DNA of 64,000 nt from an uncultured Planctomycetales bacterium (lineage in GTDB: Bacteria; Omnitrophota; Gorgyraeia; Zapsychrales; Fredricksoniimonadaceae), in contig CAZFNI010000010.1 in NCBI GenBank assembly GCA_964520655.1, forward strand, positions 371 to 64,370. Reading direction: 5' to 3'. Under the pieces are notes generated by a model, which did not search any database, was not told the origin of the DNA, and saw nothing but the letters and a program-made list of their open reading frames with translations. Shown piece by piece: positions 24,001 through 48,000 of this stretch. A program made the position numbers and the translations under genes. The first letter of the stretch is position 1; each line of letters begins with the position of its first letter.

Positions 24001-27000
24001 CGCCGCTTGTGCCGGTGGCAGGAATGCCGGATTTCTTTACGGCCACAGCCAAGGTCAATGTTGCTGATCCTCAAACGGGCGTTAAGACAGAGGTGCCGGT
24101 TGCCTTGACCTTCAATAAATTGACAGGCACCGTCAATGTCGCCAAAGACCAGCCGCGGCAGGAAATGACAGTTGCTCCGGCGTTTATGCTCAATGAACAG
24201 CCGGTCTATCAGGTGGCCCAAAACGGTCAGCCGGCAGCGGCCATCATGCAGGGTGCATCACTTCCAGTCAGCTACAGTTCGACGGATAATAGCTATGCGG
24301 TGACAGTACCGGCGACCGCGCAAGAAACAGCAATGTTTGGTTTATCCGGCACAGAATATCTGATGCCGACAATAATGGAAAAAACATTGGGTACAAATCC
24401 ACAGGCACAGGTTAGCGCCTATGTGCTAGATCTAAATGTACCGGATGTGAAAGAATTCATCGTCAAAATTCAAAAGAGAGCCGACAGCAGCAAGGTTAGG
24501 ATTGTCAAAGACGCCGGCGGTGAACGTGCGTTGATCGCACCAGCGGTATATCGTGCATATGTCGTCAATTCGACCGTTAAAGGGATTGAACAGGCAAGTG
24601 CGGCCCCGTTAAATTCGGCCGCGATCAAACAATTGGAGACGCGTTTACAGAAAGTGATGTTGATGGCGGCTGCGGCACAGGATAAAGATGCCGCTGCGGC
24701 CCTGCGTGCCCTTGAACCTCAGGTTGAACGCATTAGAAATACCCATGAAACGTTGACGTCTCAGGCTGCCGCGGCCCTTAAAGTTGCTCAGAATGCGAAT
24801 GATACACAAATGATCGATGTCTTGGCCCCCATTGTTCAACAGCTCAATGACACAGCCGCGCCGTCAGCCTTACCCCAGCTTAAAGATATCCAGGAGGTAA
24901 CGTTCAATCCCAAGGTCATTGAACAGCAAACGGCATTGAATGACGCGGGTATTTATAGAACGCTCATGCCAGCGATCCGTACCATTGTCAACGCTCCGGC
25001 GGATGCCAGCGATGCGGCCGTGGAACGTTACTTAAATAGGACCGTCAGTGCCAAGGATGCTGCGTCTCAAGAAAAGGTTGCCGCGGTCACAGCTGAGATC
25101 GAGAATGCGCTGGCTAAGACCCTGCCATCTCTAACAGTGGCAGAGCGCAAGAATATTGCCAATATTGCCGCGGGCGGGCGTTTAGAGGTCTTAAAGGGCA
25201 GCAGTAAAAAAGAAGTTGCCGCGGCCATGCAGTTTACTCAAACAGCCAGAACATCACAGCCCAGCCAGCGTTTAAGCGCAGTTGTGAATTTATTCACTTT
25301 TGTCACCGGCCAGCGACCCTCTGATGAAGTTGTCAAGAGCATTGAGAATGTGGTATTAGCTGCTGTTTCCAATACGGGCTCAACAAAGACGCAGTTCACC
25401 AATTTGCCTGAAACATTGCTGTTGCGTGTATTGACAGAGAATAAGGCAACATTGAGTGCTGACCAAGCGGTCAAATTAAAGACATTGCTTGCAAAGAAAT
25501 TGTCAAGGCCGGAACAGCAGAGAGAGTTGCGGAAAGGATTGGAGGAAGTTGAAAAGATCTTGGCTGGCACAGAAAGGTTGGCAAGGGAAGCGGGCAAGCC
25601 GATTCCCGTCGTAAAAGACCAGGCCATGTCTGCCGGCATCATGAAGACCTTAGCTGCCACGGCGTTTGTGTCTGCGCTAAGTTTGACAGGCAGCAGCGGT
25701 AGGAACGATATTCCGGCAGCATCCAAGCAGGATCCGGTTGTTTCCATTATGCTTAGCGGCAAAGATGAGAGCGTCATCCGTCAGGATGTAGCGCGGTATA
25801 TTAAGGCAAGCCCCTTAAGCGATGAACATAAAGCGCGCGCTGTCAGGGTCATGGATCAGGTCTTAGTCCAGGATGATACCGTTAAGACTTTGCGTGAAGC
25901 TGCGGCCAATGCTCCTGAAGGACAAGAAAAGGCCGAGGCTATTGCGCGTTTGACTACTGCCCTTAGCGCTGCGGTTGTGGAAGGGGTAAATCAAGACATT
26001 TTCCGTTCTGTAGAGTTAGCTACAGCTCCTCAGGTGTTGGCTGCGCCAGGGCAATATGTACCGATCGATAACAGACAGTTAAGCTATCGGGAAGCTCCGC
26101 CGCTGCGTACGGGTGAAGCGTTGGTCATCGCTTTGGATCCTCGATCAAAGAGCACAGTTGGGACCGCACTGATCACACCGCAAAGCGAACGTCCTGTGGC
26201 TGAACAGATCGCCGCGATAAAAGCCAATGTAGCGGGCAATGATATCCGTTATTTTGTGGTCTTTGCTTCACCGCAAGGTAAAGTCCCGGCCGTGATGGGT
26301 GCGATAAAAGAAAATTTAGTCAACATTCAAGAACGTCCGGTTAAAGAGAATGCTGTGGTCGTTGCGGCCAATAACAATTCGATCGCCATCAGAACGACCG
26401 GCGGTGAAGAAATTCAAGAATTTGGTGCCAATAAAGAGCTGCGTGTCCGGGCCGCTGGGCATGGCTGGCAGGAGGTCAAGAATTTCGCGCAGGATGTGTA
26501 TGCCCAATTGACAATGCCCAAAGACCAGGCGATGACTGCGGGCCGAGTGGCTCCAGCAGTAAGCAGCGCGCTGGTCAAGGTCACCGAACAACTGGCAACA
26601 GAGCAGGCACAGCAATGGGTCGATATTCTCTTCCCTGTCCAAAAGGCATCCATGACTCAGCGCGTACTGGGTATGTTTGGGGCCGGTACTAAAGAAGATA
26701 TGGTTGTTGCTTCACCATTGACAGGAAGCCTGAGCATGAAGCTGCAGCAGGAAGGATTAACCGGTGATCATTTGATCCAGGCTGTGGCAGAGATCACACA
26801 GGTCATCGGGAAAGATCCATCTGTTCGGAAATTCACCGGGGAGTATCAGGCTTCTTTAGGCCGGCAGATCGATCCATTTAATAAAGTAAAGAGCGCTCAG
26901 GCAAAGGAAGCGGTTATTTCTAATGCCAAAGCTCTTTTAGCCCATGTGTTCGCGCAGGCGTTGAAAGAGAGGATCGGTAAGACAGAACCGACATTGTCCA

Positions 27001-30000
27001 ACAGTATTGTGAATATTCCGGATGCTAAAAGCATTCCGGTCCAGATCTTCAGGGCGTATCACGAGGTCACCCAGCCGAATTCATTTGCTGTTCAACGTAT
27101 CGGCAGCACGCTGGTTGTGTTGATGCCTAAAGAAGCCGGCGCCAAACATTTTGACCGCTTCATCAGATTTGTCCGTGAGAACGAAAATGCTGCGTTTGCC
27201 GGCAATACACTGACGGTCCAGCAAGTGGTGAATTATCTAAATGACAGGAATGTTCAGAATTACAAACAGGCATTGACCAATGAAGAACAGGAGTTCTTGA
27301 AGATCCTGATGGTGCCGGGCCGGGAAATGATCCGGCAGGATGAAGGATTCAAATGGGATGTCATTGTGCCGGGTAACGTGGTCATGGTTGCGGTTGACAG
27401 GAATAGTCCGCAGATGGCTTCGAAACAGATCGTTCCGGCCGTCGCTCTTGTTTCAAAATTGTATCAGAACGAACAAAAAGGCGAAGCGGCCGACAGCGCC
27501 ATGTCTTCAACTGTTAGGGCTGTATTTGCGTCCTTGTTAGCTTCAGCTTCTTTGACCGCAAGTACGCCAAGTACGACAGCGGTGACAGATAAAAATGTCC
27601 CAGCGTCTGACGTTAAGGCTGATCAGGCCAATGAACAGGCCATGATCACGACGGGAACGCGCACGGTTGAACCTAAAAAGGTTGAACGCCGTGATGAAGG
27701 TGCCGGCGGCGGCGCGGGTGGTGGTACAGGCAGTGCCGCAAGAGTGGAATTGGTCAAAGCCTTAACGGCAGGATCACCGGCAGCAGCGGCAAGCATCATG
27801 ACCGCTAACAGCAGTCTCTCGGTTGAGGGCGTCAGGGCGGTTGAGAGCGTCGTTGCCCAAGTCATGAGGACGCCGGCATTCCAGACGGCATTAAACGATG
27901 TGCGCAAGGCTCAGGTGGAAAAAGGTGATGTTCCAGCGGCAGCGAATGTTCTTTTAAAGGTCTTTGCCCAGGAAAGCACCAGCGTCATCGACGCACGGAC
28001 AACGCGTACTGTCAGAACTGCGCAGGCTGCCCCAACACCAGTGACAGCCGCTGTACATCAAAAAGACGCGAATAATGTGGCGGCGATCCTCACGGGAACA
28101 ACACCCAACAGCATTGCTTCTCTGAAAGCCGAAGAAGATATCCCGGCGATCACTAAATATAGAGAAGGCGTCCAAGCACAGCAGGCGATCGACAACATGG
28201 TCTCTGAACCGAGCGTATTGTCTTCAGACGCTTTTGTCCGCGGCAATTTCGATCAGATCACGGATGTTGTGACCAAGGGTCTTAAAGGTACGACCAAAGA
28301 AAAGACAGCGAATATCATTAAAGCCCGTCTGCAAGATGTGTACAGCATGCCGGATGTTGTCCGTCAGTGGAATGTGATCAAGACTCAAACGCCTTCGGCT
28401 AAAGAAAGAGAAGTCTTCAATGCATTTGTCATGCAGAAGATGTCAGCCTTGCAGCCGAGTTTTGCTAAAGCGGTGATCTTGGCGTATGCGCAAAGCGTCG
28501 AGAATATGACACGAACAAGTGAGCATGTCGGTACGGATATCATGGGCGTTATCGACGCTGTTTTCACCCGTCCGGATCAGCTCATAGAAAAGCAAGCCGC
28601 TCAAGCTGCTGCCCAGACCTACTTTGATCGCAGGGAAAATATTGAAAAGAATCAATACTATAAGAACAAGGTCGCGGCTGATCCATCCTACGCGATTGGT
28701 GAATGGGCAGCCACATTAAGAGATATTGCCACGCGCATGCCGGATACGATCGTGGTGGAAGCGCCGAAGGCCGTCGCAGCGCCTGTTGTAGAGGCTGTTG
28801 CTCCTGTTGCGCAGCAAGTAACGGCTCTAGTAAAAACGGTTGTTCCTGTTCCAGTGGTTGTCCCGAATGCCTCAACGTTAGTTGATGGCAGACAACAAGC
28901 CGTGCCGGCAAAGATGGTCAAGCCCGCTGCCAACAATGATTCCTGGAAAAATAGAGTAGTCGACGCCTTAGAGAAAGTCTCACCGAGGGTTGCCGCGTTG
29001 GGCGCGGCCATTTTGCTTGGTTCCACACCAGTGGCCCAAAAGCAATTAAGTGGCACACAGGCTGTCGGTTCTGCTCCAGCGGTCGCGGTCATGCATCAAG
29101 GGCAAGAGGCACAGCTGCCAACCCTGACCGCAATGCCGATCCCTTCCACCAGCATGCCGGCAGCGTCAACAGTCAATAATGGTCCGGCGGCGGTTGTTAA
29201 TGCTTCAGGCAGCGTCGCGCCTCAAGCGAAATCCATTGCCGTGGTCCACAGCGTTGAATTGACCCGGGATGTTTCACAAGCTATTGCGAAATTACCGCAG
29301 GCGTTAAAAGAAGAAGTGTTCAGTAACCCCAGTGGCAGCGGTGCGATCGTCAGTGACCGTGTGTATCAAGTCATCAAGCCGGCCGTGGAGAAAAAAGATC
29401 TCAGTTCCCGTTTAAGCGCCTCTATAGCGGAAGCCAGCAATGCCGCAGCCGGGGCGCTGCTCATGGTCTTAGGCGGACTTGGGGTAGGCAAAAGACGCGA
29501 ACAGGCCCAAACAAAAGCACCGCAGCAAGCAGAGATCAAGACAAAGCCTGTGACCGCTTCCTTAAATGAACAGATCGCGGCCGTCAAGAATGCGGTCGCC
29601 CTGCACGCCAAGACATTACCGGATGCTGATCCAGCCAGGGTCAAGGCCGAACGTCTGGTGAAAGTATTAGACACCATGCGTTCTGTCGTGATCCCGGGCG
29701 CCGCCAATGAAGCTGTCATCAAACAGTTCGCCGCAACCGAGATCCCCGCGATCTCTGAAGATATTGTTGCCGCCTTGCCGGCCAAGGATCAAGAGACATT
29801 CAGATCCGTGGTGCAGTTCAGAGCTGCAGAGAAAGCCGAATATGAACGTCAGGAGCAGATGAAAGTTGAAACTGCCGCGAAGAAAGAACAGCAGGATATC
29901 CGCGATGGGCGTCTGCAAGCTCAGACGCAACGCGTGATGCAGGCGGGTGCTGATATAACATCGAAGGATCTGGTGGCGGCCGGGATCGCTGAAACAACAG

Positions 30001-33000
30001 TTGGCGCATCCGTCGTGAAGTGGCAGGATACACCGGATGTGAGAAATGCCCTTGAGGTCATCAAGGCAGCAGGGGAAGATATTTCGGATGTCACTTATGT
30101 CAAGGGTGAATACACGGCTCCGCTAAAACCATCAGCCCAGATCGCGATCGTGCAGTTGGCTACGGCGTTTGACCAGACAATTGAGCAGGCGGCGCAAGGG
30201 CGGCCTGTTTTGGCGGCAACAGCTCAGCAGATCAGGAACCTGGCGCGCGTGGCTATGGTGGCCGGCTATAAGGCAGAAGAACCTGATTATGTGGATCATG
30301 TGATCGCCCTCATGCCGCAAATTGAGCAGATCGAACGCGCGGTCTTTGCCTTACCGCAGGCACAGCTGGTTTTGAAGGTTGTGGAATATAATGGAAAGCC
30401 GGCGGATATTTCTTCCGCCCGCATCGTTGTTGACCGTTTAAAGCAATTTGAAACCACAGGCCAGATCGAGCCCGCCCAGGTCAAAGCGGTCTTAAATGTC
30501 GCGCCGAAATTAACGAAAGCCCAGCTGGATGACATGTTGAATTTACGCCAGGTCAGCCAGATCGCGTATCAGACGGTTCGCCAGGAAATGGCCATCTTAA
30601 AGGGCAGCCTCCCGGCAAAAGAGATCATTCAAAACAGAATTGCACAGTTGCTGCCGGCGTCGGTTAGAGGCGCGGCAGATATTAGCCGCAGCATTGCCGA
30701 TGCTGTTGTTGCCCCAGGTGCCGATCAGGTGGAATTGCCGGGCATCAGCGAAGCTGAACACAAGGTCATGACCGCGATCATTAATGATCCGCAGATCAGC
30801 GCGATCGGTTCTTTGGCAAGCGTGATGGATATGGGCGCAAAGAAAGCCGAAGGTTCCGTCGATCAGGCCCAGGTTTCTACAGCCATAAAAGTAATGGCCG
30901 CAGCCGCGGCTGCATCAACGGTGCTGTCGATCCCCAGCGCAACATCTCAACGGGAAATCAATCAGGTCTCACCGGCTGTTGTGGCGCCGGCACCCGTTAA
31001 GATCAGAGAGGTTGTGGCTCCGGTGATGGTGGACACAATGGTCCCGCAGGTGATCGCGCCGACCCAGACAAGATTTGACGTCAGCACGCCGGTCATTGAC
31101 AGGTTCAAGGGAGGGGTTGTCATCGTCGCTGTTGATGTGACAACAGGCAAACTAAGCGGCATTGCGCAAGTTGTCCCCGGCATTGACGGGCAAGTGGAAT
31201 CCTTCAAGAAAAGCCTTCCGAATGCCGAGAGCGTAAAATATGAAGTCTTCTATTCAGGTCCGCGTCCAAACTTTGTCAGCACGGTGATCAATAAGCTGGA
31301 TATCTTAAAGTCAGAAGCCAGACAAGTTGGCGGCGCATCTGCTCCGGCCCAGTTCATGGTGAAGGCCAATGAACAAGGGCTGTATGTTGTGAACTCTAGA
31401 AATGATAAGATCCATGAATACCGCTACAGCAGCAAAGGTCTGGAAAAAGCCGATCAAGCCATGGCTGCGGTCGCAGAAGTGGTTATAGAGAAAGGGATCG
31501 CGCCGGAAATATTGGCCAGGGGAGGCGCGGAATTAACCGCTGCATTAGGATCTATCGGGTTGACCGGGAATGAATTAGATGCCGTGAAGTTATCCGTTAA
31601 TCAAGTCAATCAGGACCGTCCGGCTGTTACGGCCGCGGTACAAAGAATTGAAACCGCCCGTGCTACCGGCGATACCCAAGCGGTCACGGCCGCTGTTGGG
31701 GCCTTAAATGAGATGTATCAAGGGAAGGTCCCAGAGGCTGTGTTAACAGCGCCGACGGTGCGCGGCATTCGTCTGGATGACGGTACCAGTGTCCCGGCGG
31801 TGTATAATGCCCAGCAAAAAGCCTATATCGCGGTTGCCCAAACACCTAAAGCACGCATCGCGTTGAATGCCGGCATCATCGAAACGACCTATCGCATTGT
31901 GCCGGCAGCTAAAGGCGACTCAAAACCGGAAGCTGTGATGTACACCTTGGAATCAACGCCAGCCGTCAACAAGGCCTATGCCCAGGTGATCGCGTCGTTA
32001 ACGGATCAAGAAAGAGTACAGTTGCCTCCAAGTACAGCCAAAACGATCAAGGCGACCCCACAATTGTTAGGTCGTATCTTCAATGTTCAGATCGCCAATG
32101 CTGTTAATGAACTGATCGCCGGAAAATCCTTCGAGAGCGTCAATGACGGCCGTATGGGGGCATTGCTCAATCAAGCGTTGGCCTTGGCTCAGGAAAACAA
32201 TGATACCGAAACTGTTGCCAAGATCAATGAACTTCAACCTCGCATTATTTTACTGCAAAAAGCGTACAGCGAATTAAATGCCCAAAGCGCGTTAGCCCTC
32301 AAAGTCGCATTATTGAGCAAAGATCCTCGAACGATCGCCCAGGCCCAGGCGGTTGTCGACCAATTGACCCAAATGAACGCCGACGGCCGCTACAGCAAAG
32401 ATGTGTTGACGCAATTGAAAGATGTTCAATTCCCGAAGATCAGTAAAGAAATGCTGGCTGTGTCGGTTAAGCTCAATGGGGCCAGCGCCTATACGGTTGT
32501 GATGTCCGCATTGCGCGGCCTGCTTGGGTTAAAGACTAAGGGCACGGATGCCCAGGATGAAGAAGCCGTCAGTCAGGCCATGAAAGATCCCGGCAAGAAT
32601 GACCAGATCACCGCGGCTATTGAAGAAGAATTAAGATCACTTGGCTTGACCGAGGGCATTAGCGATATTGCCATCGCCGTTGTCCAAAGCGGTAATCTGA
32701 AATTACTGCAAGGCATGACCAAAGAAGAAGCGCGTGCCTATGAAAAGATGATGCGCAGCCCGAATAATCAAGCGGTGGTCACTATTCTGGATTTCTTCGG
32801 ATTCAAGGGTGACGAGATCTTCGCCGGTGATAAAGCGATGGCAGTAAAGCCGCAGGAAAAAACGGCTGCCAGTATGCGCGAGATGTTCAATTTAGGCGCG
32901 GTAGGCAAATACATTGCCCAAGCCATAGGCCAGGGATACAAGACCAACAAGACCAGCGTGATCGCTTTTGATCCGGATGATCAAGCACAAATACGCGCCC

Positions 33001-36000
33001 TGAAAGACATGGTCATCACGATGGGCCGTAAACCGCTGGACATCACCTCGGCCAATATCACCAAGGCGGCAACCGATCCTAAGGCGTATGTGTTCTTAGT
33101 GCCCAATAACAAGGATATCCGGCGTGAACTGGCCAATGATCCAGAGGCCATGAAGGCGCTGGAATTGATCACCGATGTCCATGATAACAACGTCCGCACG
33201 GGAAGCGAGCTGTTCGCCGCGCAGGAAAAACTCATTAAAACGAATTATGTCGATCATTTGACCGGGATCGGCACGCAGGCGGAACTCAAACGCAGCGTCC
33301 AGGACATGATCAAGACGATGATGATGGGGACTTCATTAAGGTCCCGCGTCGCCCCGGCCAAAGAACCAACAGAGCGCAATGTTGCCTTCACTTATATCAT
33401 GTTCGACGGCAATAAATTCGGTTCGACCAATGTCCTCTTCGGGTTTGAGAATGGGGATGCGGTACTGGCCAAATTAGGCGAGATCGTTCGCGGCAATTCC
33501 CGTGAATCAGATATCTTGGTCCGCTGGGCGGGGGATGAATTCGTGATCGTTTTGCCGCAAGCCGGCAGAGAAGAAGCGGCCGCCTATTTGACCAAATTGA
33601 CTAAGGCCATTAACGAAGCCTCGTTCGTGCCGGAAGTCTTTGGCCGCAGCGCGGTATTAGAGAGATTACAGGCGAAACAGAATGATGACCTCTCCGAAGG
33701 CGACCAGGAAAAGATCCGTACCGGTTTGATCGCCCAGCTGAAGATGCAGAATCCCGGCAAGGAAGTCCCGGCGGATATGACCACTGAAATGGCTGTCAGG
33801 GCGATCAAGGCAGATCAATACGCCTTTGACCGCTGGATCGTTTCCATCACCGCCGGCGCAGCGGTGGTCAATAAATCTATTGAAGAGATGAAAGACAAAG
33901 ATCCAGAAAGCCTGCGACTGGAAGTGGAAAAAATGGCCGATACCGCTCTTGAAGGCGCTAAAGGCAACGGCAAAAGCTTTGATATCGTCAAAGACGGACA
34001 GCATTTTGTTTCCAATGAACCAACGGTGCTGGCGTTTGAGTCCAAAGAAGAACCTGTCGCGTATGCCGACCGCGTGGCTGGCCGCGGTGTGCTCGAAGGG
34101 TTAATGGATGAATCCATCCGCTGGGCGGAGAAGAATCATACCGTTCCTGTGCTGACCTATACTACAGGCGATCAGCTGGCAGGCATTAAAACATATTTGG
34201 CTAAGGAACATCCGGATAAAAAAGTTCGGAGCATCTATGATGCGAATTCGATCGGCGCGCTGGTCAATAATCCAGCGCTGTCACAGCAAGTGATCGTCAT
34301 CCCTGAGACGATGAAATTCAATTATCTAAAAGATTCTCCAGAGCTGCTGGCTGATTTTGAACGCATCACCGGTGTGCATGATGCCAAACTAACCGCTGAG
34401 GCCTGGTATGAATCTCAGCGCCGGGAGATCGATACTCCGGGGACAGACTTGTTGACAGGCTTGAAGAATAATGCCGGATTGAATCAAGCTGCCAGACAAT
34501 CCTTGAAGGAAATGGGCCGTATTATCGAGGCCGGGACCCCGGCCCGCATGGCCGCGGTTGTTGTCACCCTGCGTGATTTTAAGGCCGTCAATGACCTCTT
34601 CGGACATCATGCCGGCGATGCAATTTTAACGCTGGCCGGAAATTCTTTGAAAGCAGCGTCGCGCTTGACGGACAGCGAGGGACGTTTGGGCGGCGATAAA
34701 TTTGCCGCGATCCTGCCGAATACGGGAGAAGAAGGGATTGGCGCTTATGTCAGCCATGTGGTTGAACGTTTTAAGAAAGATCAGACACAGGATGCAGAAG
34801 TCGCCAGGATCTTAAGCAGAGACAATGTGGCTGACGTGTTGACACATATCTTGATGGATCCAACCACGACGGAGGAGAAAAAGATCAAGGTCTTGGGATG
34901 GGTGAAGACGCAGTTGAAGATCCAGAACCCCGGCAAAGAAGAGAAGATTGATGCGATTACAAAACTTTGGGATGCGATGAATGTGATCGACGAAAATAGC
35001 GACTTGACGTTCGACCGCTGGGTGATTGAATTAACGGCGGGCGCAAGCGGGATGACCCAGGTATTGCCGCAGAAGATCACCGATAAAGACGGCCGCCAGA
35101 TCTATGAGAAATTGATCACGGAAGCAAAGACCGCTGTTGCCCAGGCACAGAAAACAGGGGAGGTCGTAAAGCTTGGCCAATTTGATATCGCCTTAGAGAA
35201 AGCTCAGGCCGCCAAGCAGGAAAGCAGCGACAAGGCCCAGATCGCACGGGAAAAAGCACAGGCGGCCTCAGAAAAAGCTATCGAGAATGCCCGTGAGGCC
35301 CGCGATAGAGCGCAGATGGCTGCATATAATTTCAGTGCCCTGCGCAGCGCGGCAGTCCGTGAAGGCAAGTCCTACTTTAGTATATTGAAGGATGCTGTTT
35401 CAAACGGCCGTTTTGCCCAGAAGGCTAAGGATTACGGGGAAAATATCCGCGCCAAGATCTTGGATAATTCCTCCATCGCCAGGATCTTAGCGGCGATCGA
35501 GCAGCATAGGGCCTTTTTGAATGACCACCTGCAGGCCGTCAGAGGCCAGGTATTTAAGAAAGACGGCCAGGTCGGTTCTTCCGTCCAGACTAGCGCCGAT
35601 TCTTCGCAGGATCCCAATGACGCCACATGGTTTGAATATTTGATCAAGAAGATCAAGGATGCCGCCGATCAGGTGGTCTTTATCCTGGCGCGCCGCACCG
35701 CTTCATTCTTTAAGCCGGTATTCACCGCGGCCAATAGTTTCGCCGAGAACGTGGATTATGCGGCCTTAAAGGGCACCCGCGACATTGTCCGGGGCGTGCT
35801 GGCCTTCTTTGATCTGAATTCTGACGCCAAGATCGTTGACGTTTTTGCCGGCATCATTTCCCGTAATAAGGAAGCTTTGGCCAAGGCCAAGAACTTGCGC
35901 ACGATGCTCGTTGAGATCATTGAGATCGTCAAGATCGGGGACAATGACAACGAGGAGCTGCAGGAAGTTCCGGCCGATGCCGCGCAGATCGCCAACACTT

Positions 36001-39000
36001 TGGCCGATCAGATCATCGCTAAGTCCGGTATTAATTCATCCGCCTCCGCGGAAGATAATATGATCTTGGCCGTAGATCGTCAGACATTCAATGCCTACAA
36101 AGCGCTGCATTTGGAATTAATGGCCGCGGCAAGCAATCCGGCAGAGAAAGATGAAGCCATCCAAGCTTCCACGCAATGGTTCATGCGCTGGAAGATCAGC
36201 CCGCTCAATGCCCAGATGATCGTTGCCGGTTTAAATAACGGTAAAGGATTCACAGATCTTAAATCCTTATTGATGATCGATAAGAAGGATTCTTACTATA
36301 AGGCCAAGGATATCCAGCCGGGCCACAGCGTTGAAGGTGTGGAAGAAGTTGAAGAAGTTGAAGAAGTCCCGGCGGCAGTGCAGCCTGCGGATGTTCCTCA
36401 AGGCCCGTCTTACGCCGATCAATTCAATACGGAATACGGCGCGGAAGAGACCCAGACGATCGATGTCGAACCAATGGCGCCGCCAGCACCAGCCGACCGC
36501 AACAATATCAATGATTTCGATAATGAATTGCCGGTCATGCCGCAAGCGCCGCTGCCGCCAGCACCGAATAATATTCTGCCTAAAGTCGGTCCTTTATCCG
36601 ACGCCACAAATGATGTGCAATATGATAATGTCATTGAACTCTCGGCCGTGATGGCTGCGGGCAGGAGAAACACCGCGAAGTTAGAAGGCGAAGGCGGCAT
36701 TGCCACCGATGCCATGCCGGCGACCGGAACAGGCGACGAAGCGATGACATCTGTCGATCCCAACGATCCTTTGAAAGATAAGAAAGCTGTATTGCCCCAG
36801 ACCAATAAAAGCGGCAAAATGCCGCTGGATGAAGGCGGCACCACCGCTCCCATGAGGACCCCGACACTGCCAGGACCCATCGGCAACCCTGTGTCTGTGC
36901 CAGGCACAGCTGCGGCGCAGCCCACAGGTCCAGTGGCTGCCAATAATCCATTAGAACCAGCAGCACCTGAGGCGCCCGCGCCCAACACAACACCGATGGC
37001 TCAAAATAGTCCTTCGGCCCAAAATACTCAGGCACGGGTTGCGGCACCAACACCTTCTCCTGTACCAACTCCGTCCGCGGCAGGCGGAGCCCCGGCTGTA
37101 CCGCGCGCATTGACTGGCCCGCAAACGCCGCTGGGAATAACCTATAATCCGAGTGCTGTTGGATCCCAGGCTGAAGCGCCGCCTCCAGGGGCCTCACAGA
37201 CAACAAGAACAGCTCCTGCTGAACCGGTCAGTGAGCCAATACCATTACAATCACCTATTCCAGTGCCCGCGCAACCTTCTGGGGCTGGGTCAGGCTTAGT
37301 ACCGATCGTTTATGCGATCAGGCAATTGAGATATCAAGTCACAGAACCAGTTCCTACCGGTTCAAGATTAAGGGGGTATAATCCGTTTGCCAGAGTGCTT
37401 TTAAAAACGGCGCCGGATCACGCCCCGGGTCGTAACCCATCTGTCAGCGATTTCTCCGATCGCTCCGACAGAAGAAATGTAGGAAATGGAGAAAATGTAC
37501 AAACGTTTGCAGTACAAGCAGTTGCAGCAAAATCAGTAGTTTCTGTAAAATTAGCAGAAAATGACTTAGCGCAAGCTATGTCATCAAGCAAAAGCAGCAC
37601 AAAAGCAGTACAAGCAGCAAATCGTAGCGCCGAAGTAGCAGCAAGTGTCAACGCAGTACAGGTAGTACGTAGTGTTGCACAAAGCAGTAGTAGTAACAAT
37701 GTCCAAACTGGTAATAAGTCCTCCCTTAGGGGTAGGATGGCAGCGCAAGTAGCAGAAGCAAGAGCTGTAGTGTCAATGGACATTATGGCGGAAACACCTA
37801 GATCTGACAGGACTGTTTATAATAACAGTGCCGCTGGTAATAGTAATAGCAGCAGAGTACATATAGGAAATACTGCATCAAGCCTACGTGCAAGAAGTGT
37901 GCGCATAGACTCTGGGCACGGTATAGATAGTGTAGGTAGACTGTCTAGTGCTAGGGCTATATACACAGATACTGCCATAGGTGTGAGTGCTCGAGATTTG
38001 CCAACCGGGCTTGCCGGGGATGGTCTGCGTATGGGGACTGTTTCTGGAGGTTCAAGAAGTGTTGGCTTCTATTCGTTATTGTCAAAACGAGCACTGACAT
38101 TCAGCCAAACTAATCTCACACAAGCACAATTAAGTATCATCCGTTTCATCCATCAAAAGGGGAGGTACGTATGGTTACCGAACTTAAAATTAACCACATT
38201 ATCCGCGTCCGCGACGACGACTCCAGGATCGCAACCGCACGCGACGCAAACAACAAGATCCACATTTACCGCATCAGCAAACTGGGCATCATCACCAAAC
38301 ATAACGGGCTTAAATCCACATGGGATCCTGTTGAGGCCAGGATCAAGGAAAGTCTCCGCATTCTTATTGACGCCGCAAGCAAATTCGGCCGCAGTTACAA
38401 GATCGACCACGTCTGATCCATCACTCAATTCTAATAATGTTTTTGATCATGCGCGTATTTGGCTAGCCAAACAAAGCCAGGGCCGCTTTGTGTTTGACAG
38501 GGCACAGCGCGCATCCTGGAAAGACGCGCTCCAATCTATCCGCAGAGATCTATGGCAATACATCGCTGTTGCGGTGGGGGGCGTGATCGGTTCTGCGGTG
38601 ACGGTTGTCGCCATAGAAAAGGGATGGATCTCGCCGCGGGCCATCGAGATCATCCGCGTCAATACCTGGATTGTTTTAGGCGTATATGCATTTAAGGTAT
38701 TGATCGACCGCGTTTTTGGTAAGAACGATCGATCAGCTTCTTCCAAAGAAGAAGGCACAAAGAACGACGAAGACAAGAAGATATTGTCCGTCGCCTTGGT
38801 TTTAGGCACCGGGGCGGCCTTGATGTCTGTTTTAGGATTTACACCTGACGCCGAGGCGGCGCAGGCGCATTTAACACAACACAACGGAGGTGCACTATGG
38901 TTAAGATCACCAACATCATCGACATTCCCAGCACTAACAGCCACATTGCCACGGCCAGGGATGAACGCAACAAGGAGCACATCTTCTGCATTACCGATGA

Positions 39001-42000
39001 CGGTCAGGTCTTTAAACGCAAAGGCCGCAGTAAATGGGAAGAACTTACGGGTGAGCGCGCCAAACGCGTTATCTATACCACCTACGAAGAGTTCTGCTCC
39101 AGCGGCGAGAAAAGACACAGCGTCGAGGGCTATGTCGGCGTTCCGCTCTTTATGGCTGCAAAATAATCTGCGTGATGTGGGTGGCATGACCTCGCCCCTG
39201 TTAGGAACAGGGGCCGGCCTGGGAATTGTTCTGTTGGGGCTTGGTTTAAGAGCGCGCCGTCTCAGTGGCGCGCTTGGGGCAGGCGGATATTGGGGCAATG
39301 TCAGTGACGACCTGGAGAAACAGATCAGGTCCGTTCTACCCCGGGCCAGGGACATTAAAGGCCGTCGCCTGCCGGTGGAATTCAACGGCGTGCCTGTTCA
39401 GCACAAGTATTTCGAAAAAGAGTTTTTTGAGAAAAAAGATGTTTCATTTATCTGGGCAGCTAAGAGCCGAGGGAAACTGGTCATTTATTTTTCTTCATAT
39501 GGGCTCTTTACGCAATTGACCCGAGAGTTCCCCCATGAAAAGGAGTTAGAGAAAGCGCTCGAGATGGTTTATTACCACGAGATCAGGGAACAATATTATT
39601 TATCACGCGGGTGGGGGCGCGGCGACAGCCACCGGTTTGCCGTGACTGGCACCCGTATCCAGTATCTGCGTGAGAAGGACATTCTCTCTAGAATAGAATC
39701 CCTGATCGATCCTCTGCCAGCAGCAGCTAAGGACCATGTGCGCGTCCACATTGGCAAGAATGACGCCGAGGAGCTGGATCTAGGCGCTGCGCGTGCCGAT
39801 GCGATCGTACGGCAGCAAAAGGGACGAATCAATATAGCTGTCGGCGGCGGGGAAACAGTCCCGGCACTCCTGGATGCCTGGGTGAGGTTGATCGCAGAGA
39901 ATCTGCCGCTCTACAAAAGCATCATCTCCAGGATGCATGTGTTCATGGTGTATGAATCCAGGAACAGCAACACGCATCAGGTGGTGATTGATAGATTCAT
40001 CACCCCGCTTAAGGCCATGGGCATCAGCGTTGACAGCAAACAGATCCATGCCGTAAATTTACAAAACGCGCATACGCTTGAGGAATACAAAAAGATCGCG
40101 AAGGATTACACCATCGCCATGAGGAATTCGTTAGGTCCCAAGGACCAGTTCGATCTGATCTTAAGCGGGGTTGGCCAGCACGGTGAATTCGCCGGTTTTG
40201 AATCCAATTCACCGGTCATTTATGCCGCCAAGCCGGTGATGATCGCCTTTGAGCGGCGTGACGGTGTTTTGATGACCTCACTGACACCGGATGTGTTCCG
40301 TAAGGCCAGGAACATTATCCTGGTATTGATCGGGCCCCATAAGCGCGGAGCGCTGCTGGATATGATCGCCCCCGAAGGGTCCATCGGTCAGTCCCCGGCC
40401 AGGGTGATCCATGAACAGTACTGGGGCCAGACGGACATTTACACCGATCGTTCTTCCAAGCGCTGGCCGCAAAAAGAATTTTTATTGGATGATGGGACTG
40501 TATTTTTCGCGGATGTGCATGAGGGGCTTAAAGGATCGGATGTGGTCATTTTTATTCCTGGCTTTCATGACCATAATTATGACCAGCAGTTCCGCGGCCT
40601 GCCATATGCCGAGACCATCGTTGTGCGCCGCGACGATCTGCCGGTGAGATTAGGCAAAGATGAGGTGATGGCGTATTACGCACAAAAGATCAAGGCGGTC
40701 ATCAAATATTATCAGGACCAAGGCCGCCGGATCAAAGTGGTGACGCATTCTGACGGGAATGAATTCTTTGGATATTTCCTGGCGCATGCCGCCATGGATA
40801 TTCAGCCGATCGCCGCGCTTGACCGCATCAGCCCATGGAATGCGGCGGATATCGCTTTTGTTATTGAGCGGTTTGCTCAACATAAGCTGGGCCCCGCGGC
40901 TTTTGGGATCGGTTATGTCTCCCCATTGCTGGCATCGATCATGAGCTCGTCCTGGGGATGGTTGCCGATGCTTGGGCCCGCGGCCAATGAAATGCTGCGC
41001 TCATTCATCGCTTCGAACATGGATGCCTTCAGCAGCCTGTTTGACCAGGAGGATGCCACGTTAAGCGGTCAGCTGCGCCGTGATGACCTGGAGTCATCCA
41101 TGGAGATCCCGCTGGAATTGCTGTTCGCGGAATTGTATGCCGTGTCTCATCAAGACAAGGAAGTCACGACCAAGGCACAGGAACGTCTGATCGCCTGGGG
41201 AACGTTCGTGACCACGATCGCGCCTAAAGAGGACAATATTAGCAATGTCAAACGCATCGCGGAGGAACATCAACGATTTATCAGCATGAAAGGGAAAGGG
41301 GAACTTGTTGAATTATCAATCGATCCTAAAGGCGGCAGTTCATTTACGCAGGCCCATTTTATTCACCGTTTTGCGGCGCGGGTGAATGCCTTGATCGCCA
41401 GATTCCCCGGCGATGAAACGATCGTGCCTTCTGCGGAGACAGCGTTTGAAGGGATACAGGCAGCCTTAAGCATATCAAGAGAGAAGGGCCATACATTACT
41501 GCGTATTCATTTTGGTCAGGATGAGATCGACGTGCGGGCGCTTGCGGCTAATGTGGAAGATGCACAGATATATATTGATGATCTCACGACCCACCAAAGG
41601 GTTGTCAATTACACCATTGACCAAACCCGCCGGTATTCAAGCTCGGTGACGCTGCGTTTTAAGGACGGTGAATTACCCGCGGCGTTCTGGATCAAGATCG
41701 GGCAGGGGATCGAGAACACCATCGTGACAAGAGGGGCGGTCGATAAGAAGCTTCGTCCGTATTCATTCTTTGTGACTAAGGATGCCCATGGTCAGCCGTT
41801 CCCGCAAAGTCCAAGAACCGCGGAAGAAGCGTATGGGCTGATGCAGTCATATCGGATATCTGACGATGAAACCCAGGACCATGCCATCAGCGCGTCAGGA
41901 CAGATACTGGCAAGCACGGTCAATAATCATTTTGCTGCCAGGTTTATCCGGCATGCCGATCTGATCCAAAAGATCAACCGCTATTTAGGCCGCGGCGACC

Positions 42001-45000
42001 CGTTGGGAGCGCCGCTGGCGGTGCGCGAAAAAGGTCGGGTAAAATGGTTTGTGGAACCGGACCGTCTGGTGACCATATTATCGCAAGAACTTTCCGAATC
42101 AGAGAGAATAAGCGTTGTTGAAGCGCTTTCCGTTGTCCGCAGCTTTCTCCTTCATGAGTCACGACCGACGGAGAAAGAGGGTATTGCTGCCCAGATCACT
42201 GGGTTTATCCAGGAAGAAGAGATATCCAGAACACGTGACGCTTATGCGACGATCCAGGCGGCCGCGCGTCAGGGCGGTATCAAGACCCTGCAGCAGCTGG
42301 AGAAAAAATATCGCAAAGACCAAACCCTGATGTTCAGATTTGAACACCGTACCGCAGAAAATGTCATTATTTTGTACCGCTGGCCAACGCTCTTTGACGT
42401 ACCGGAAGTCCATAAGGTTCACAATGATATTTGGTTCAAATTCCCCAAAGAGCAGATGTCGCTTTTGCAGGTATACGCTCAGATCCAGAATTATCAGCGC
42501 GGGCATGTTGTGGCGGAAGTTTTTGATTTAAATGTCCCTGGCCGGCAGTACATTTACGCGCCGATCTGGAGCGTGCGGGTCAATGTGTCTCGTGATCTGG
42601 CCCGTCGACTGATGTTTTCTGATGTGGCAGGAACGATGTTTCAAACAGTAGATGCCTTGACCAATGACAAGACGCTTGACGGCGTCGTATCCGTTGACGG
42701 CCAATGGACGTTTAATTATGCCACGGGTCTACCGACAACCAAAGTCGCCAATCAGGACGCGGTTGCCGGGTATCTTGTCAAGGGCAAGCCGCTCAAAGGT
42801 ATTGATGATGGGTTGGTCATGACCCAGGCGTACCAGCAGCACCGCGACAGGATACGGTTCTTAAGAACATACAGCCCGATCACCGCGCTTGGCCTGCATT
42901 GGAAAAAAGGCGCGTTCAAATTTAATTTTGGTGAGATTCCCGATGGAAGATACCCTGGGGCGCATGCGATCATCATGGCCTACCCCTGGCATGATTTTAT
43001 GACCATTGGCAAAGGGCGCTTCTCTGAGAAGCTTTCCAGGGTAGTGATCGTGCCTTCGTATCGTTTTGGCATTGACCGCATCGCTTCACCGGTCGATCCG
43101 GATAAGGAAGAATTGGTCATTCGTGTCGCGGTTCCCGGGTTCAAGCAGGCCTTGCCGCGCAATAACCCGCTGCGCCGTCCTTTTGTGAAGGTTAACAAGG
43201 ATCTGATCCTCAGGAATGGGAATAATCATTACCGTGTTCCTGAGATCTTTAACATGACCGCGGTCGGACATGCCAAAGCATTGCTTAAACGGTATTTAGG
43301 GTTGGATACCATCACCTTGGCATCACTGCCTGAGCACAACGGCATGAAGCTCACCGTCGCTGTATTAGGTGACCATGAGACCCGCTCATTTAAACCGTGG
43401 ATCAATTTTGGGGTGATCAAAGCTCTGCTTAAGAACCGTCAGATCAATACGGTGGTCACCGCAACGACAGGAAATCAGGGTATCGCGCTGGCCTGGGCCG
43501 TGCGCATGCTGGCTAAGACCATGAAGAGGGAAGATCTGAAAGTGATCGTCTATGTCGGTGTTAATACGTCAGAAGCGAAGATCGCGCGCATGCGGGAGTT
43601 CGGCGCCATCGTCATTGGGGATCCTTCCCGCAACCCGGATGTTGTTTTCGAGAATTATGAAGCAGCTTATCAGGCGGCGCTTAAATTCTCCCAGATCCCC
43701 GAGATCAAGGAAAAGACATATTTTGTGGAACATGCCAACCGTGCGGCGATCTTGGGGTATGCCGCATTAGGATCAAGGGTTTTGGAGATCTTGCGTTCAC
43801 AGGATAACGCAGATCATTTGGCTATTATTGTACCCGTCGGGGCCGGAGGTCTGGCCAGCGGCTTTGCAGTTGCGTCACGATTGGAGAAAGATCCGACCAA
43901 GGTGTATATAGTCCAGACAACACGGACAAAGCATGCGTACATCTCGTTGTTGACCGGTAAGAGGGTCGTATTTGCCATGCCTCAAAGTCAAGAGTACGAC
44001 GAGAACGGCATCGACACTAAGAGTCTTGAGCCAATGGCATTAAAGACACTGCGCACTACCGCTGATGGTTTGGCGTTAGTTGACCCGACGCTGATACCTC
44101 AGACGATCGCATATTATCGCGCCCAGGGGATCATTGCTGAGGGGGCCGCGGTATTGCCATATTTGGCGCTGGAGGCCTTGAAGGAAGAATTGGCAACCAA
44201 AGGCATCACCCATGTTCTTTTGGTCGCAACCGGCAGCAATGTCAGCGATGCTGCGCAGAGTTCTCGGGACATCATGAGGCATGAAAGGGCGGCGGCACAT
44301 CGTTTGTACCAGGCCACAAGGAATTTGGAAAAGAAGCGCGCCAAGAACGGGCTGATGCCGATCGTCTCTGTTGGGGCGGCCACGTTTGAGCAGGGCAGGA
44401 GCGTGCATACGGCTTTCAATGATTTTAGCGTGCACGCTGAGGGGAATCTTGTTTTTGATGTGTTGGCCAGTCAGGTTAAGAAGGCACATCCAGCACTTCA
44501 AGAGCCATTAGACCGTCTCTATGCGCTAGTTTCAATGAGGAAGCTGTCCCGTGATCAGACGTCATTCAAACGCCTGGTCAAAATATCCGCGCAATTGGGC
44601 CATCCCATGAAGGGGCTGGATGTGATCGTGACATATGAACCTTGCCCGAGCTGCTTTAATCTCCTTTTCTCCGTCGGTGTTCGCAAGGTATTTTATATCG
44701 ACGCGCATCCTAATGATGAGTTCGCGCAAAAGCGCGGGCATGCCGGCCTTATGAAGGTACAGTTGGAAAGCTTGGCCAGGAAAAGCTTGATGAACCAAAG
44801 GTATAAGCACTTAGTGGCGCAGGACCAGATGGCATTTAGCGATGATCAGCGGGCAGCGCAGGATGTCTTTGCCAATTCATTCAGGCAATGGTTCAAAGAT
44901 CATTTGAATGCCAGCATTGCCGATGTCAGGGGGATGAAAGAACAAATCGGGAATGTTAGCGGCGCAATGTTTTGGAAGATGCCGCGCGGTGACAAGGGGA

Positions 45001-48000
45001 TGGCCTCTCTGAAGCCTGGAGTGCATTCTGGGTCATTGTCCTGGATCGATGGCTTACGATCGAATATCCGCATTCTCCACAATTGGTCCGCCGAGGAACA
45101 GATATTTGCGGCTGATCTATACCGCAGTCAGCCGGAAGTAAAGAAAGCATTTTTGAAAAATGCGCGCATCACCATGGATCTGGAAGCGTATTTAAATTCG
45201 AAAGGAATGCTCCCATTGGGGGTCATTGCCCGCCGTGAGAGCATTAGAACCAAAGTCAAGGATCTGGACCTGGGGTGGCGATGGCTTATCCGAACCGACA
45301 GTCATGAGAATGCAGAAGATGTTATTTTTAGAGTATTGACCCAGGAGCTTCCGGAGGATCAGCAGTTGACGCCGCGTGAAGCGTTGATGTTCATCGCCCA
45401 GGTCAAAGCACATGAAGAAGGAAAAAGCGAAGCGAAAGGCATTGTCCGTCAATACAGAGACATTAAGGCCCGCAATGCTGTTGAACCGAAATTGCGCATT
45501 GATCCGGTGTGGGCCAAGTCGGAGCAGATTAAGGATAGGATCAGGAAGCTTATGAATGTTCTGTGGCATGTGATCATAGGGATGGCATTTATTGCGCCGG
45601 TGATTAATTCAGAACTTTGGATCGTGGCTGCAGTGTATACGGCAGGCATGTGGCTTGCGGCTGCTTTTTGGATATTGATGTTATATTTCTCTGAGGTCCT
45701 GATGGTTATTGGCTGGGGGATCCTGGGGCTGTTTGTCTCTCCGGTGCAAGCCAAGATGGAGTTTGTTAACAGGATATTGACCGCGGCTTTTGCGGCAGCG
45801 ACCGGGATCGCGGGCTATCAGGTGTGGAATATGCCCAACGACGCCAGATCATGGCTTGTTTTGATATTTTTGGGGATCTTTACACATCGGAATCTTTCGG
45901 TGGATATCACCATCAAGCAGGATAATGATGCGCTGGACCTCACCCCCGTCTATGACTTAAGGTCAGGCAAAGAACGCAGCAACATCACCACCGCCTTTGA
46001 TAAGACCGAGGGGATCACGCTCCCCTGGATATACGGATTTAGTCCACAAGGCGGTCATACCGACGAGGACATCAACACGGCCTTACAGTATCTTAAGCGT
46101 ACAGCGCCCCGGAAAGCCTTGTTGCTTAAAACGCTGGTGGACGAAAATCGTTTGACTTTTGGGGCTGACGAAGCGTTCCACTCGGCCTGGGTGACTAAGA
46201 ATGGCCAGCAATACTTGTTGATAAGCGTGATGGAGTCCGAGGACAAGGCCAGGGCTCTGGTGCGTGCGATCGCCGGAAAAGAAGCGGTTTCAGGCTTTGA
46301 CCAGCTTAAGCGTGTAAAACAGACGATCTCCTCATCGGGAGGCGCCTTGGTCAATATCAGCAGCGGCGGGGCCATTTTAGATGTTGTCGCGGCCTATTAT
46401 GAGAACACAGATGCCGGGAAATTCAGCCGTTTCTGGTCGCTGGTTGACCAGAAGCAGATCTATATAAGCCGGCAGGTAGAGCAAACCCGATGGGAGGGCG
46501 ATGAGCTGCTGGTATCATTGTCCAATGATAAAGAACTGTCGCATGAGATCGTGGGGGCCATGGCTGTCCAAGGCGAAACAGCGCAGGGAGAGATCGATCG
46601 ATTGAGGCGGTGGCTTGAGGATCACACATCTGGCAAGGGACTAATGGCAAGTTGGGGCATGTCGGATCAGCAGATCGCTCAATTATCTTCCTGGGGCAAA
46701 GAGCAGCTGTTGAAGATATTCAAGATCGCCTGGCCGGAAGACATGGTGTTAAGTCTGCCAGCTGGGACTACGGGGAATTTGATCTGCTTTGAGCCAGTAC
46801 TCTATAAGATCAACCGTCCAGTGTTTAGCGGTGACCTGCTCTTGGTCCAAATGGCGGTCCTGGCTCAACGCAGGCGGCTGACAGGTATTATTGACGAGAA
46901 GGCGCGTTATGCCGCGGCGCTGTTGACTACGGCAGTTCCTTATTTATTAGACCTGCGTCGCGATGAGGATAGAAAGCAGGCGCTGATCACAGCCCTGGGG
47001 CCTGGGAATATGGGAGAGCAGGATACTCTGGCGACTTTTTACCGTCGGGTGTTGAACGATACGGCTTTGCAGAGGCCGGAAGATCTTCTTGTGCATCTTG
47101 CCGGAATTTTTGACTTGGATGAGGATTCCGTTGGAATGATCGGGACTGTTGACCATGCCCAGGCATCTGTAGTGCCGGGGGATAGTTTTATTGATCCCGC
47201 GCGCAGTGAGCCGCCGCTGGCCGTCTCGCATCAACCTTTGGTCATGAAGATCGCGCAGGAGCATATCCATACACATATGACCCCGTCACATTTGGATATG
47301 ATACGCGACGAGGATGGGCACGTTCAAGAGGATGCCTATACGGGAATGCGCAGGGATATTGAGAGATTCTTAAGGCAGATCGGGGATCTGCGGGCCCTGC
47401 GCATTTTTCAGGGAACGGTCATCCTCCCGTTTACGCCGGGTCTTCAGGACAGCTTGCAGGAAACGTTTTGGGGTGCATACACATTCCAGGGGTTAAACGG
47501 GACCTGGCAGAGAAACGCGGAAACATATCCAGTCATCATTGCCAATGATGCCGAATCGATCGTCCATGAGCTGTATGCTTTAAGCGGCAGGGAACATCAT
47601 CTGGCGCATGCCCATGAACAGGCGGAATATAAGGCTAAAATATTCACACAATGGCTGGAGTCACATAATGATTTTAATATTTTTTATTCCGGGCCCAAGC
47701 CGCATCGCATGGGCGCTTTAGGGTTGCTGAAAAAGATCATCCCGAGAATGGCGTCCGCATTTGCCGCCCAAGGTCAAGAGGCAAGGATTAATGTACTTTC
47801 CTGGGGAGGGGTGAGGCACCTGGAGCTTCCGGTGAGCACTGAGGGGCTGAGGGTCCTGATGTATGTGCTTGAACACAACCGCATGAATCTTAGTCAGTGG
47901 AACAATGTCCGTCTAACCCCGGATAATTTTAAGATCACTGTTGTTGCCGACCGCTTGGACACGCTCGATGCCAAAGCGTTTAAGATACACCTGAACCATT

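Follow-up and report, generated by a model that had tools for sequence, protein, structure and literature searches.

The 64,000-nucleotide stretch of DNA analysed here (the window; positions 371 to 64,370 of contig CAZFNI010000010.1, GenBank assembly GCA_964520655.1) comes from an uncultured bacterium deposited as Planctomycetales and placed by GTDB in the Omnitrophota. It carries a giant open reading frame (ORF) of 49 kb, inside which lie two small ORFs, ORF1 and ORF2, on the same strand and in the +2 frame relative to the giant frame (frame 0). Very probably, both belong to a family of small genes that are obligately nested, are initiated independently of their host, and sit in disordered linkers of a giant protein gene of the Omnitrophota type. 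The case for this reading is built on the start signals and substitution patterns of the small frame, on stop avoidance in the host frame, and on the recurrence of the same layout at related loci.

Two small ORFs stand out in the +2 frame of the giant ORF

Over the length of the giant ORF (coordinates in Table 1), frame 0 has no internal stop, while frames +1 and +2 contain 870 and 1156 stops, respectively. ORF1 and ORF2 are the two longest +2-frame open stretches of the entire 49 kb, and nowhere else is an off-frame preferred in a scan of codon usage for which the giant ORF served as training set. The sequence GGAGG occurs 33 times in the giant ORF, and an ATG follows within 4-9 nt only at ORF1 and ORF2. 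An earlier note on this DNA had pointed out that both ORFs begin with ATGGTTA after a well-spaced GGAGG and that they encode homologous proteins. The spacers are indeed 5 and 6 nt long, and homology is borne out by BLASTP (E=4e-10, 33% identity over 76 aa). The same note described the overlapping frame-0 translation as rich in Ser, Thr, Pro and Ala (S/T/P/A), and these residues account for 53-54% of the frame-0 peptide across ORF1 and ORF2, versus 29% of the whole giant protein. RNA at the starts is less structured than the background mean in 8 of 10 cases, a modest effect. We consider the nested-ORF observation confirmed: it is real and much stronger than chance.

Indels that push a normal domain out of frame, or another assembly or sequencing error, could in principle create such an arrangement, a risk raised by the probable metagenomic origin of the DNA and by the difficulty of assembling giant genes. 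However, six independent assemblies match positions 37513-45282 at 99.1-99.9% identity without a gap, so the nested arrangement is not an assembly artefact. In addition, the same layout recurs at 11 further loci, which represent different species and samples, and frame 0 stays open, unlike the outcome of indel errors. We assign a negligible probability to an artefact.

A family of small proteins nested in every intact copy examined

A word-indexed protein search retrieves only near-identical proteins and one ortholog at 68% identity. At E <= 1e-3, a hidden Markov model (HMM) search of 1.84 billion representatives recovers 37 small proteins with lengths of 75-102 aa, as well as weak matches to two propeller-repeat proteins (E = 4e-4 to 6e-4). 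With added members, the family totals about 53 proteins of 75-107 aa, all unannotated. Database members lie on contigs under 2.3 kb, except ORF2 itself (P0001), whose longest contig measures 6,497 bp and starts about 110 bp upstream of the ORF. Such a restriction to short contigs would be expected if gene callers report the small genes only when the giant ORF is fragmented.

We examined the DNA of 13 intact copies at 12 loci, whose proteins share 22-68% identity: ORF1 and ORF2 in the window, and one copy each in L001, L008 (= L011), L009, L010, L012 to L015, L016 (= L017), L018 and L019. Some of the related loci come from metagenome-assembled genomes labelled Candidatus Omnitrophota, and one from a genome labelled Planctomycetales. 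In all 13 copies, GGAGG or GGGGG precedes the ATG by 5-6 nt, and the small ORF occupies the +2 frame relative to a longer host frame in which no stop occurs from one end of the contig or 20-kb locus to the other; by contrast, dozens of stops are present in the remaining frames of these contigs and loci. In L013, L014, L016, L018 and L019, a stop in the small frame itself lies shortly upstream of the nested ATG (15-27 nt). No further family copy was detected in the window or in the 20-kb loci by an HMM search of six-frame translations, and L008, L009 and L010 contain no other off-frame ORF of at least 50 aa equipped with a Shine-Dalgarno sequence and ATG.

What is invariant among the copies, an ATG located 5-6 nt after a Shine-Dalgarno sequence and followed by G, T or C, is a signature of initiation. 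It argues against a programmed -1 frameshift, by which ribosomes would enter the +2 frame before the small ORF, with GGAGG as a stimulator in the manner of dnaX, and produce a shortened giant protein with the small domain at its C-terminus. The geometry would allow this, the +2 frame being -1 relative to the giant frame. Shine-Dalgarno-like elements do stimulate frameshifting in dnaX and prfB, and ORF1 of the window is preceded in frame 0 by CAA AAG GGG, that is, by an A_AAG_GGG heptamer. However, the heptamer occurs only before this copy, there being no slippery sequence in L001 and others, and the small-frame stops 15-27 nt before the ATG in the five loci named above leave almost no room for a shift. 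Frameshifting thus appears very unlikely.

Selection acts on the small frame

Four orthologous 81-aa proteins (window ORF1, L001, L008 and L009) align without gaps. Their dN/dS ratios range from 0.08 to 0.20 when computed for the small frame and from 1.45 to 2.8 for the giant frame, and substitutions concentrate at small-frame position 3, which is giant-frame position 2. When L008 is compared with L009, the nested ORF is the best-conserved island, amid surroundings that are 25-50% identical and contain indels. ORF2 has no ortholog in our data, and the evidence on its selection comes from strain variants: none of the 10 single-nucleotide polymorphisms (SNPs) alters the small protein, whereas each one falls on position 2 of a giant-frame codon and is a replacement there (P = 1.3e-5 counting transitions only; P = 1.4e-7 over all point changes). 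Eight of these 10 SNPs are private to the L005 variant and fall within 70 nt (38932-39001), all at third positions of the small frame; this cluster may represent a divergent haplotype or a recombination tract.

The earlier note had already proposed purifying selection on the +2 frame, which the ortholog ratios and the ORF2 SNPs substantiate, and had cited largely synonymous differences between the two copies. The latter holds inside the conserved motif only; overall, ORF1 and ORF2 differ mostly by replacements. As copies at 33% identity differ in this way, the evidence for purifying selection lies in the orthologs and strain SNPs and not in the ORF1-ORF2 differences. Judging from these patterns, the small frame encodes a conserved protein under strong purifying selection.

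If the giant protein alone were made, conservation of untranslated small ORFs would have to reflect a constraint on RNA, DNA or the giant peptide. Expression of the small ORFs is predicted from sequence, and stop density predicts that off-frame ORFs of ~100 codons arise by chance roughly once per 49-kb ORF. However, changes fall at small-frame third positions and hence at giant-frame second positions, the opposite of what a constraint on the giant peptide would produce, and a constraint on RNA structure would not yield three-base periodicity. Furthermore, a family of 53 proteins at 22-68% identity keeps the ORF, the Shine-Dalgarno sequence and the ATG, and AlphaFold2 predicts a confident fold for it (see below). 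Taken together, it is extremely unlikely that the small ORFs are left untranslated.

The host frame is kept open across the nested genes

Openness of the host frame was evaluated by resampling synonymous codons with the codon usage of the giant ORF, the small protein being held fixed. The probability of an open host frame given the protein ranges from 6e-4 to 1e-3 per ORF1-type copy and is 0.035 for ORF2. In ordinary coding sequence, 0.8% of 82-codon windows have an open +1 frame.

The nested ORFs show a peculiar codon choice. In ten of them, NTA and NTG represent 1-2% of codons with T at position 2, versus 39% in the giant ORF. All 17 NTG codons present (ATG included) are followed by G, which gives TGG in the host frame, and the base following NTA codons is only C or T. 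At the protein level, Met is followed by I, M, T, N or K in 1 of 67 cases among the 53 family proteins, versus 19.8 expected, the sole exception being P0055; residue 2 is Val in 43 of these proteins and is never an amino acid with A-starting codons only. Third positions are also enriched in C (37-62% in nested ORFs, 22% in the giant ORF), even at codons unable to create stops, where C reaches 53%, versus 23% in the giant ORF (P = 3e-13) and 32% in the downstream genes (P = 3e-6). Because this excess of C yields host codons of the NCN type, the host frame reads as a low-charge linker rich in Ser, Thr, Pro and Ala; the read-through peptide over the nested copies consists of 39-63% S/T/P/A and has few charges. 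Across the overlap, the host frame thus displays stop avoidance and a composition bias, without constraint at the amino-acid level (dN/dS above 1). In every intact copy examined, the host frame is kept stop-free through specialised synonymous codon choice.

These results bear on an arrangement of separate cistrons, that is, an upstream protein, a first small gene, a membrane protein, a second small gene and a downstream enzyme protein, with frame 0 undecoded across the small genes and its openness incidental or non-coding. Gene callers do call the small ORFs and the downstream parts separately on fragmentary contigs, ATG 39186 or GTG 39177 could start the downstream part, and codon scores for frame 0 lie close to zero over the small ORFs as well as over 37626-38165. 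However, a protein encoded in frame 0 needs a stop codon at its end, and there is none in 49 kb. Openness has a probability of about 1e-3 per copy, yet 13 of the 13 intact copies are open, codon choice removes every stop-forming combination, and the proteins avoid Met before an A-starting codon. Finally, the membrane segment after ORF1 has no frame-0 start equipped with a Shine-Dalgarno sequence before its first helix. We find separate cistrons quite unlikely. The earlier note had left the choice between a small-gene cassette that merely "happens to lack frame-0 stops" and small proteins overprinted within disordered linkers of a megaprotein. The former has to be abandoned in view of the openness probability, the 13 open copies and the avoidance of NTA and NTG, and the latter is favoured by the same low probability, by the recurrence of the layout and by the codon avoidance.

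Several points weigh against an obligately nested gene. Translation in both frames is predicted from sequence. All related loci were ascertained via the small protein, and orthologs of the giant gene that never had a nested ORF or have lost it would be missed. A null model using the nested ORFs' own codon usage gives an openness probability of about 0.5 per copy (product 0.0018); this null is circular and sets a conservative bound. The excess of C at third positions could partly be an expression-related codon bias instead of resulting from selection on the host peptide. Transmembrane (TM) helices follow the nested gene in only five of the eight informative cases. In P0055 (L020), similarity to the family and openness of the host frame end together, at about nt 255-275. 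The sequence past this point is GC-rich and unrelated, and L020 is the only family member whose host frame gains stops; either a chimeric contig or rearrangement and decay of the copy may account for this. Lastly, the well-conserved segment 35190-36662 was used in a word-indexed protein search for orthologs of the giant frame; nothing was retrieved at E <= 1e-10, even though a segment 55% identical to it is encoded in L009. As giant proteins are apparently not retrievable by word-indexed search, their orthologs have to be surveyed at the DNA level or in six-frame translations.

Flanking giant-frame segments and signals

Features of the region are listed in Table 1.

Table 1. Coordinates of the giant ORF, the nested ORFs and associated features in the window.
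Feature	Position	Strand	Remarks
Giant ORF, host reading frame (frame 0)	186..49187	+	16,333 codons, without internal stop
Low-complexity giant-frame linker before ORF1	36900..38160 (approximate)	+	P/T/A-rich, then S/A/V/R/N-rich
Giant-frame peptide SKRALTFSQTNLTQAQLSIIRFIHQKGRYV	38082..38171	+	Immediately before ORF1 start; at the RNA level, A/C-rich ORF1 leader
+2-frame stop bounding ORF1	38111..38113	+	60 nt upstream of ORF1 ATG
Shine-Dalgarno GGAGG of ORF1	38161..38165	+	5 nt before ATG
Nested ORF1	38171..38416	+	81 aa, isoelectric point about 10; frame +2; giant frame there is an S/T/P/A-rich linker
Giant-frame segment between ORF1 and ORF2	38418..38896	+	~160 codons, normal frame-0 codon usage
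Predicted TM helices between the ORFs	38550-38606, 38649-38705, 38778-38834	+	Giant frame
+2-frame stop bounding ORF2	38846..38848	+	51 nt upstream of ORF2 ATG
Shine-Dalgarno GGAGG of ORF2	38886..38890	+	6 nt before ATG; read Gly-Gly in giant frame
Nested ORF2	38897..39166	+	89 aa; frame +2; paralog of ORF1
Fourth predicted TM helix	39192..39248	+	Giant frame, right after ORF2

Upstream of ORF1, the last ~540 nt of the linker (37626-38165) have a frame-0 codon score in the bottom 1% of the giant ORF; frame 0 is open there and no other frame is. The encoded peptide contains short AVQA-type repeats, and a similar composition is found before the nested gene in L013 and L015; the window peptide "SVSDFSDRSD" resembles "VSDYSDGSKNEGRN" of L013. 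Closer to the start, a giant-frame motif running up to the Shine-Dalgarno sequence, ALTS..AQL.II.FI.Q.GG..W, is common to window ORF1, L008, L009, L010 and L012, and its codons vary synonymously (for example, ttt/ttc and att/atc).

Downstream of the nested gene, TM helices are predicted in the window (after both copies), L010, L014 and L015, and are not found in L001, L008 and L009. The segment between ORF1 and ORF2 (38418-38896) contains no frame-0 start preceded by a Shine-Dalgarno sequence ahead of the first predicted TM helix. Given this and its normal codon usage, the TM segment is most simply reached by frame-0 read-through of ORF1. After ORF2, candidate frame-0 starts are GTG 39177 (ATG in five strain variants) and ATG 39186, the latter being used by gene callers on fragments. 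Through internal initiation or re-initiation, the C-terminal, enzyme-rich part of the giant protein (about 3,300 aa) might additionally exist as a separate product.

We found no sigma-70-type promoter on the + strand in 37300-39400, although Omnitrophota promoters may differ; the internal promoter upstream of ORF1 that the earlier note had proposed to look for is thus not apparent as a sigma-70-like site. Two co-linear pairs of inverted repeats surround the block formed by ORF1, the TM segment and ORF2 (38038-38051 with 39310-39323, and 38092-38108 with 39290-39306). A mobile cassette or a long-range RNA stem was considered on this account and rejected, as the predicted duplex energy of -31.2 kcal/mol is also reached by 11.6% of background pairs. 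A 14-nt direct repeat flanks ORF1 and, by eye, does not recur at the start and end contexts of other copies. On the minus strand, 38447-39385 is the longest open stretch under the giant ORF (312 aa) and shares third codon positions with the giant frame. Its codon score is -0.03 and its SNPs comprise 4 synonymous and 15 replacement changes; we judged it to be a by-product and not a gene.

Proposed expression and origin of the nested genes

Under the nested-gene reading, the giant gene would be transcribed as one long mRNA. Ribosomes from the giant start would read through in frame 0 and produce flexible linkers flanking a three-helix membrane segment. Separate 30S subunits would bind the internal GGAGG, initiate at the +2-frame ATG and end at the small-gene stop, the product being a free beta-plus-alpha protein of 9-10 kDa. 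Expression of the small protein would thereby be locked to that of the giant gene, and its output could exceed that of the giant protein. The weakest step of this scheme is function: the small protein may be a dedicated partner of the giant protein, in binding, assembly or regulation. Such a role is suggested because the family is seen only nested and, in five of the eight informative cases, immediately before membrane-spanning segments.

As for the origin of the arrangement, a pre-existing small gene was likely absorbed when flanking coding regions became fused by read-through. As the small frame appears structured and conserved while the host frame is unconstrained save for its openness, the giant ORF is likely to have been extended across an older small gene. 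This would suggest that giant ORFs can grow by read-through fusion across retained genes.

The Shine-Dalgarno sequence itself is read as Gly-Gly by the giant frame in 12 of the 13 copies, with a nearly fixed 6-nt spacer, window ORF1 having Gly-Arg instead. Double-glycine leaders cleaved by C39 peptidases are of the LSxxELxxIxGG type, with hydrophobic residues at -4, -7 and -12. Before the Gly-Gly of the nested copies, hydrophobic residues are frequent at -7 and -12, L008 and L009 have an acidic residue at -8, and the residue at -4 is polar (Q, K, H or N). As the giant protein has an N-terminal C39 domain, the Gly-Gly at the Shine-Dalgarno sequence could be a double-glycine processing site, though its -4 residue is polar; the C39 domain has no sequence match in PDB that would allow a comparison of catalytic residues. 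A more elaborate scenario would combine an "absorbed operon" (stop-loss fusion) with cleavage by the giant protein's own C39 domain at the GGAGGT-encoded Gly-Gly, after the amphipathic AQL.II.FI.Q.GG, the small protein acting at this junction. If it were true, one stretch of RNA would both start the small protein and mark a cut in a polyprotein, but we hold this scenario to be unlikely.

Predicted structure of the small proteins

No match to the small proteins was found by sequence searches of Pfam, NCBIfam, PADLOC or PDB. In particular, Pfam yields no family at E<=1 for ORF1 and ORF2, nor at E<=0.1 for six other members, and the KTSC-like pattern that had been tentatively noticed in these proteins is not supported. 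AlphaFold2, run with a 38-sequence alignment, predicts a long helix between a set of five beta strands and one last strand (mean predicted local distance difference test score, pLDDT, 86; predicted template modelling score, pTM, 0.73). As to a propeller blade of the Hyd_WA, FG-GAP or DUF346-like type, the indications are mixed: the family profile does match two propeller-repeat proteins, though weakly, Pfam matches are absent, and the predicted fold is not that of a four-stranded blade. An immunity protein of the CdiI type was also considered, the top Foldseek hits being CdiI and a toxin-immunity pair (E = 0.36-0.57), and was rejected, as Pfam detects no toxin domain upstream.

The giant gene and its genomic setting

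Pfam detects an N-terminal Peptidase_C39 domain in the giant ORF (E = 3e-8), two GGDEF domains near 34.4-35.8 kb and, 3' of the nested genes, Glucosamine_iso, PALP (pyridoxal-phosphate-dependent enzyme) and dCMP-deaminase-like domains. Upstream of the nested genes, the giant-frame protein is up to 55% identical to related loci. Omnitrophota giant genes have been described with an N-terminal C39 domain and TM segments, reportedly transcribed as a single mRNA and with some proteomic support (10.1101/2023.11.21.568195). Given its C39 domain, TM segments and Omnitrophota relatives, the host ORF matches these genes. It displays the features of the Archaeovorin type, namely a length of at least 7,000 aa, an N-terminal C39 domain, TM-like helices and homologous loci labelled Omnitrophota. 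SecA-like domains are also described for those genes, but in the window no SecA DEAD or preprotein-binding domain was detected by Pfam at E<=1e-4 in 1000-aa chunks, the edges of which may split domains.

Inspection by eye of the giant protein between ~18,000 and 31,000, a region without Pfam match, reveals repeated modules, each some hundreds of residues long and trailed by a similar A/V/P-rich stretch; examples are "D.KTGEIFTAPTPE", "DIKSGLVYPSMPTPEN" and "DVQTGMVYASSTD". Downstream of the giant ORF lie common chromosomal genes with housekeeping roles, among them glmS-, pyrB- and pyrC-like genes. Amid them, two adjacent paralogous genes on the minus strand (55868-57247 and 57266-58648; ~460 aa each) have a C-terminal Peptidase_S74 (endosialidase-chaperone) domain, a tail-fibre/adhesin-like feature.

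Comparison with known systems

The host gene shares its N-terminal C39 domain, TM segments and Omnitrophota relatives with Archaeovorin-type giant genes. Nested, out-of-frame or internal genes are not mentioned in 10.1101/2023.11.21.568195 or 10.64898/2026.06.07.730766, and a literature search on Omnitrophota together with overlapping or nested genes had no Omnitrophota paper among its ten top-ranked results. Our results suggest that hidden genes exist within Omnitrophota giant ORFs and are picked up by gene callers only where contigs are short fragments. Whether giant ORFs yield one polypeptide or many has been raised as a question (10.1101/2023.11.21.568195), and the nested genes would mark specific linker junctions that bear on it. 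The stop-avoiding pattern (no NTA or NTG, Met never before an A-starting codon, C-rich third positions) could also be used to find other hidden nested genes.

Embedded genes are known from viruses. In the spanins of phage lambda, Rz1 is embedded out of frame in Rz on the same strand, and the two products work together. Both of these products are small and their genes form part of a lysis cassette of the phage, and we found no homology or functional link to the present family. In hepatitis B virus, part of the overlap between the envelope and polymerase genes falls on a tolerant spacer region of the polymerase. Like here, one ORF lies wholly inside another, the envelope (S) ORF being fully nested in the polymerase ORF (PMC5604429). 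However, that case is viral and under genome-size pressure, and the nested envelope gene is regarded as the newcomer, whereas the present case is cellular and the direction of overprinting is apparently reversed. In a cellular genome with a 49-kb gene, compaction is no obvious driver.

Very few bacterial genes that lie out of frame within another gene have been characterised (PMC11230408). Sequence features that mark nested genes of the comS/gndA type are present here: same-strand +2 nesting, a conserved ribosome-binding site and ATG of the small gene's own, purifying selection, and a constraint on the host frame. In E. coli, gndA is nested in gnd, in the +2 frame and on the same strand, with its own Shine-Dalgarno sequence and with start and stop conserved across species (PMC11230408). 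The nested ORFs of the window share with it the +2-frame, same-strand position and the Shine-Dalgarno sequence of their own. However, GndA is a UUG-initiated helix of 36 aa that overlaps a folded enzyme domain and is thought to have arisen de novo, whereas the present proteins are larger, ATG-initiated and encoded over a disordered linker, and here it is the host frame that bears the "overprinted" signature (biased composition, dN/dS above 1).

The comS gene of Bacillus subtilis, located in the surfactin synthetase gene srfAB, resembles the present case in being a small out-of-frame, same-strand gene inside a very large multidomain gene, to the transcript of which it is tied. ComS comprises 46 aa and is confined to close Bacillus relatives. 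In contrast, the present proteins comprise 75-107 aa, have a predicted fold, have diverged to about 22% identity and are nested in every intact copy examined; moreover, the host frame is here an unconstrained linker, and the nested frame looks the older of the two. While comS is one of very few characterised bacterial nested genes (PMC11230408), and known nested genes are short and taxonomically narrow, the present family is deep, diverse, predicted to fold and found only nested. With evolutionary signatures in both frames, it would be one of the cleanest cases of natural dual coding in a cellular genome, and one in which overprinting seems to run in reverse, as the large host frame, and not the small gene, carries the overprinted signature.

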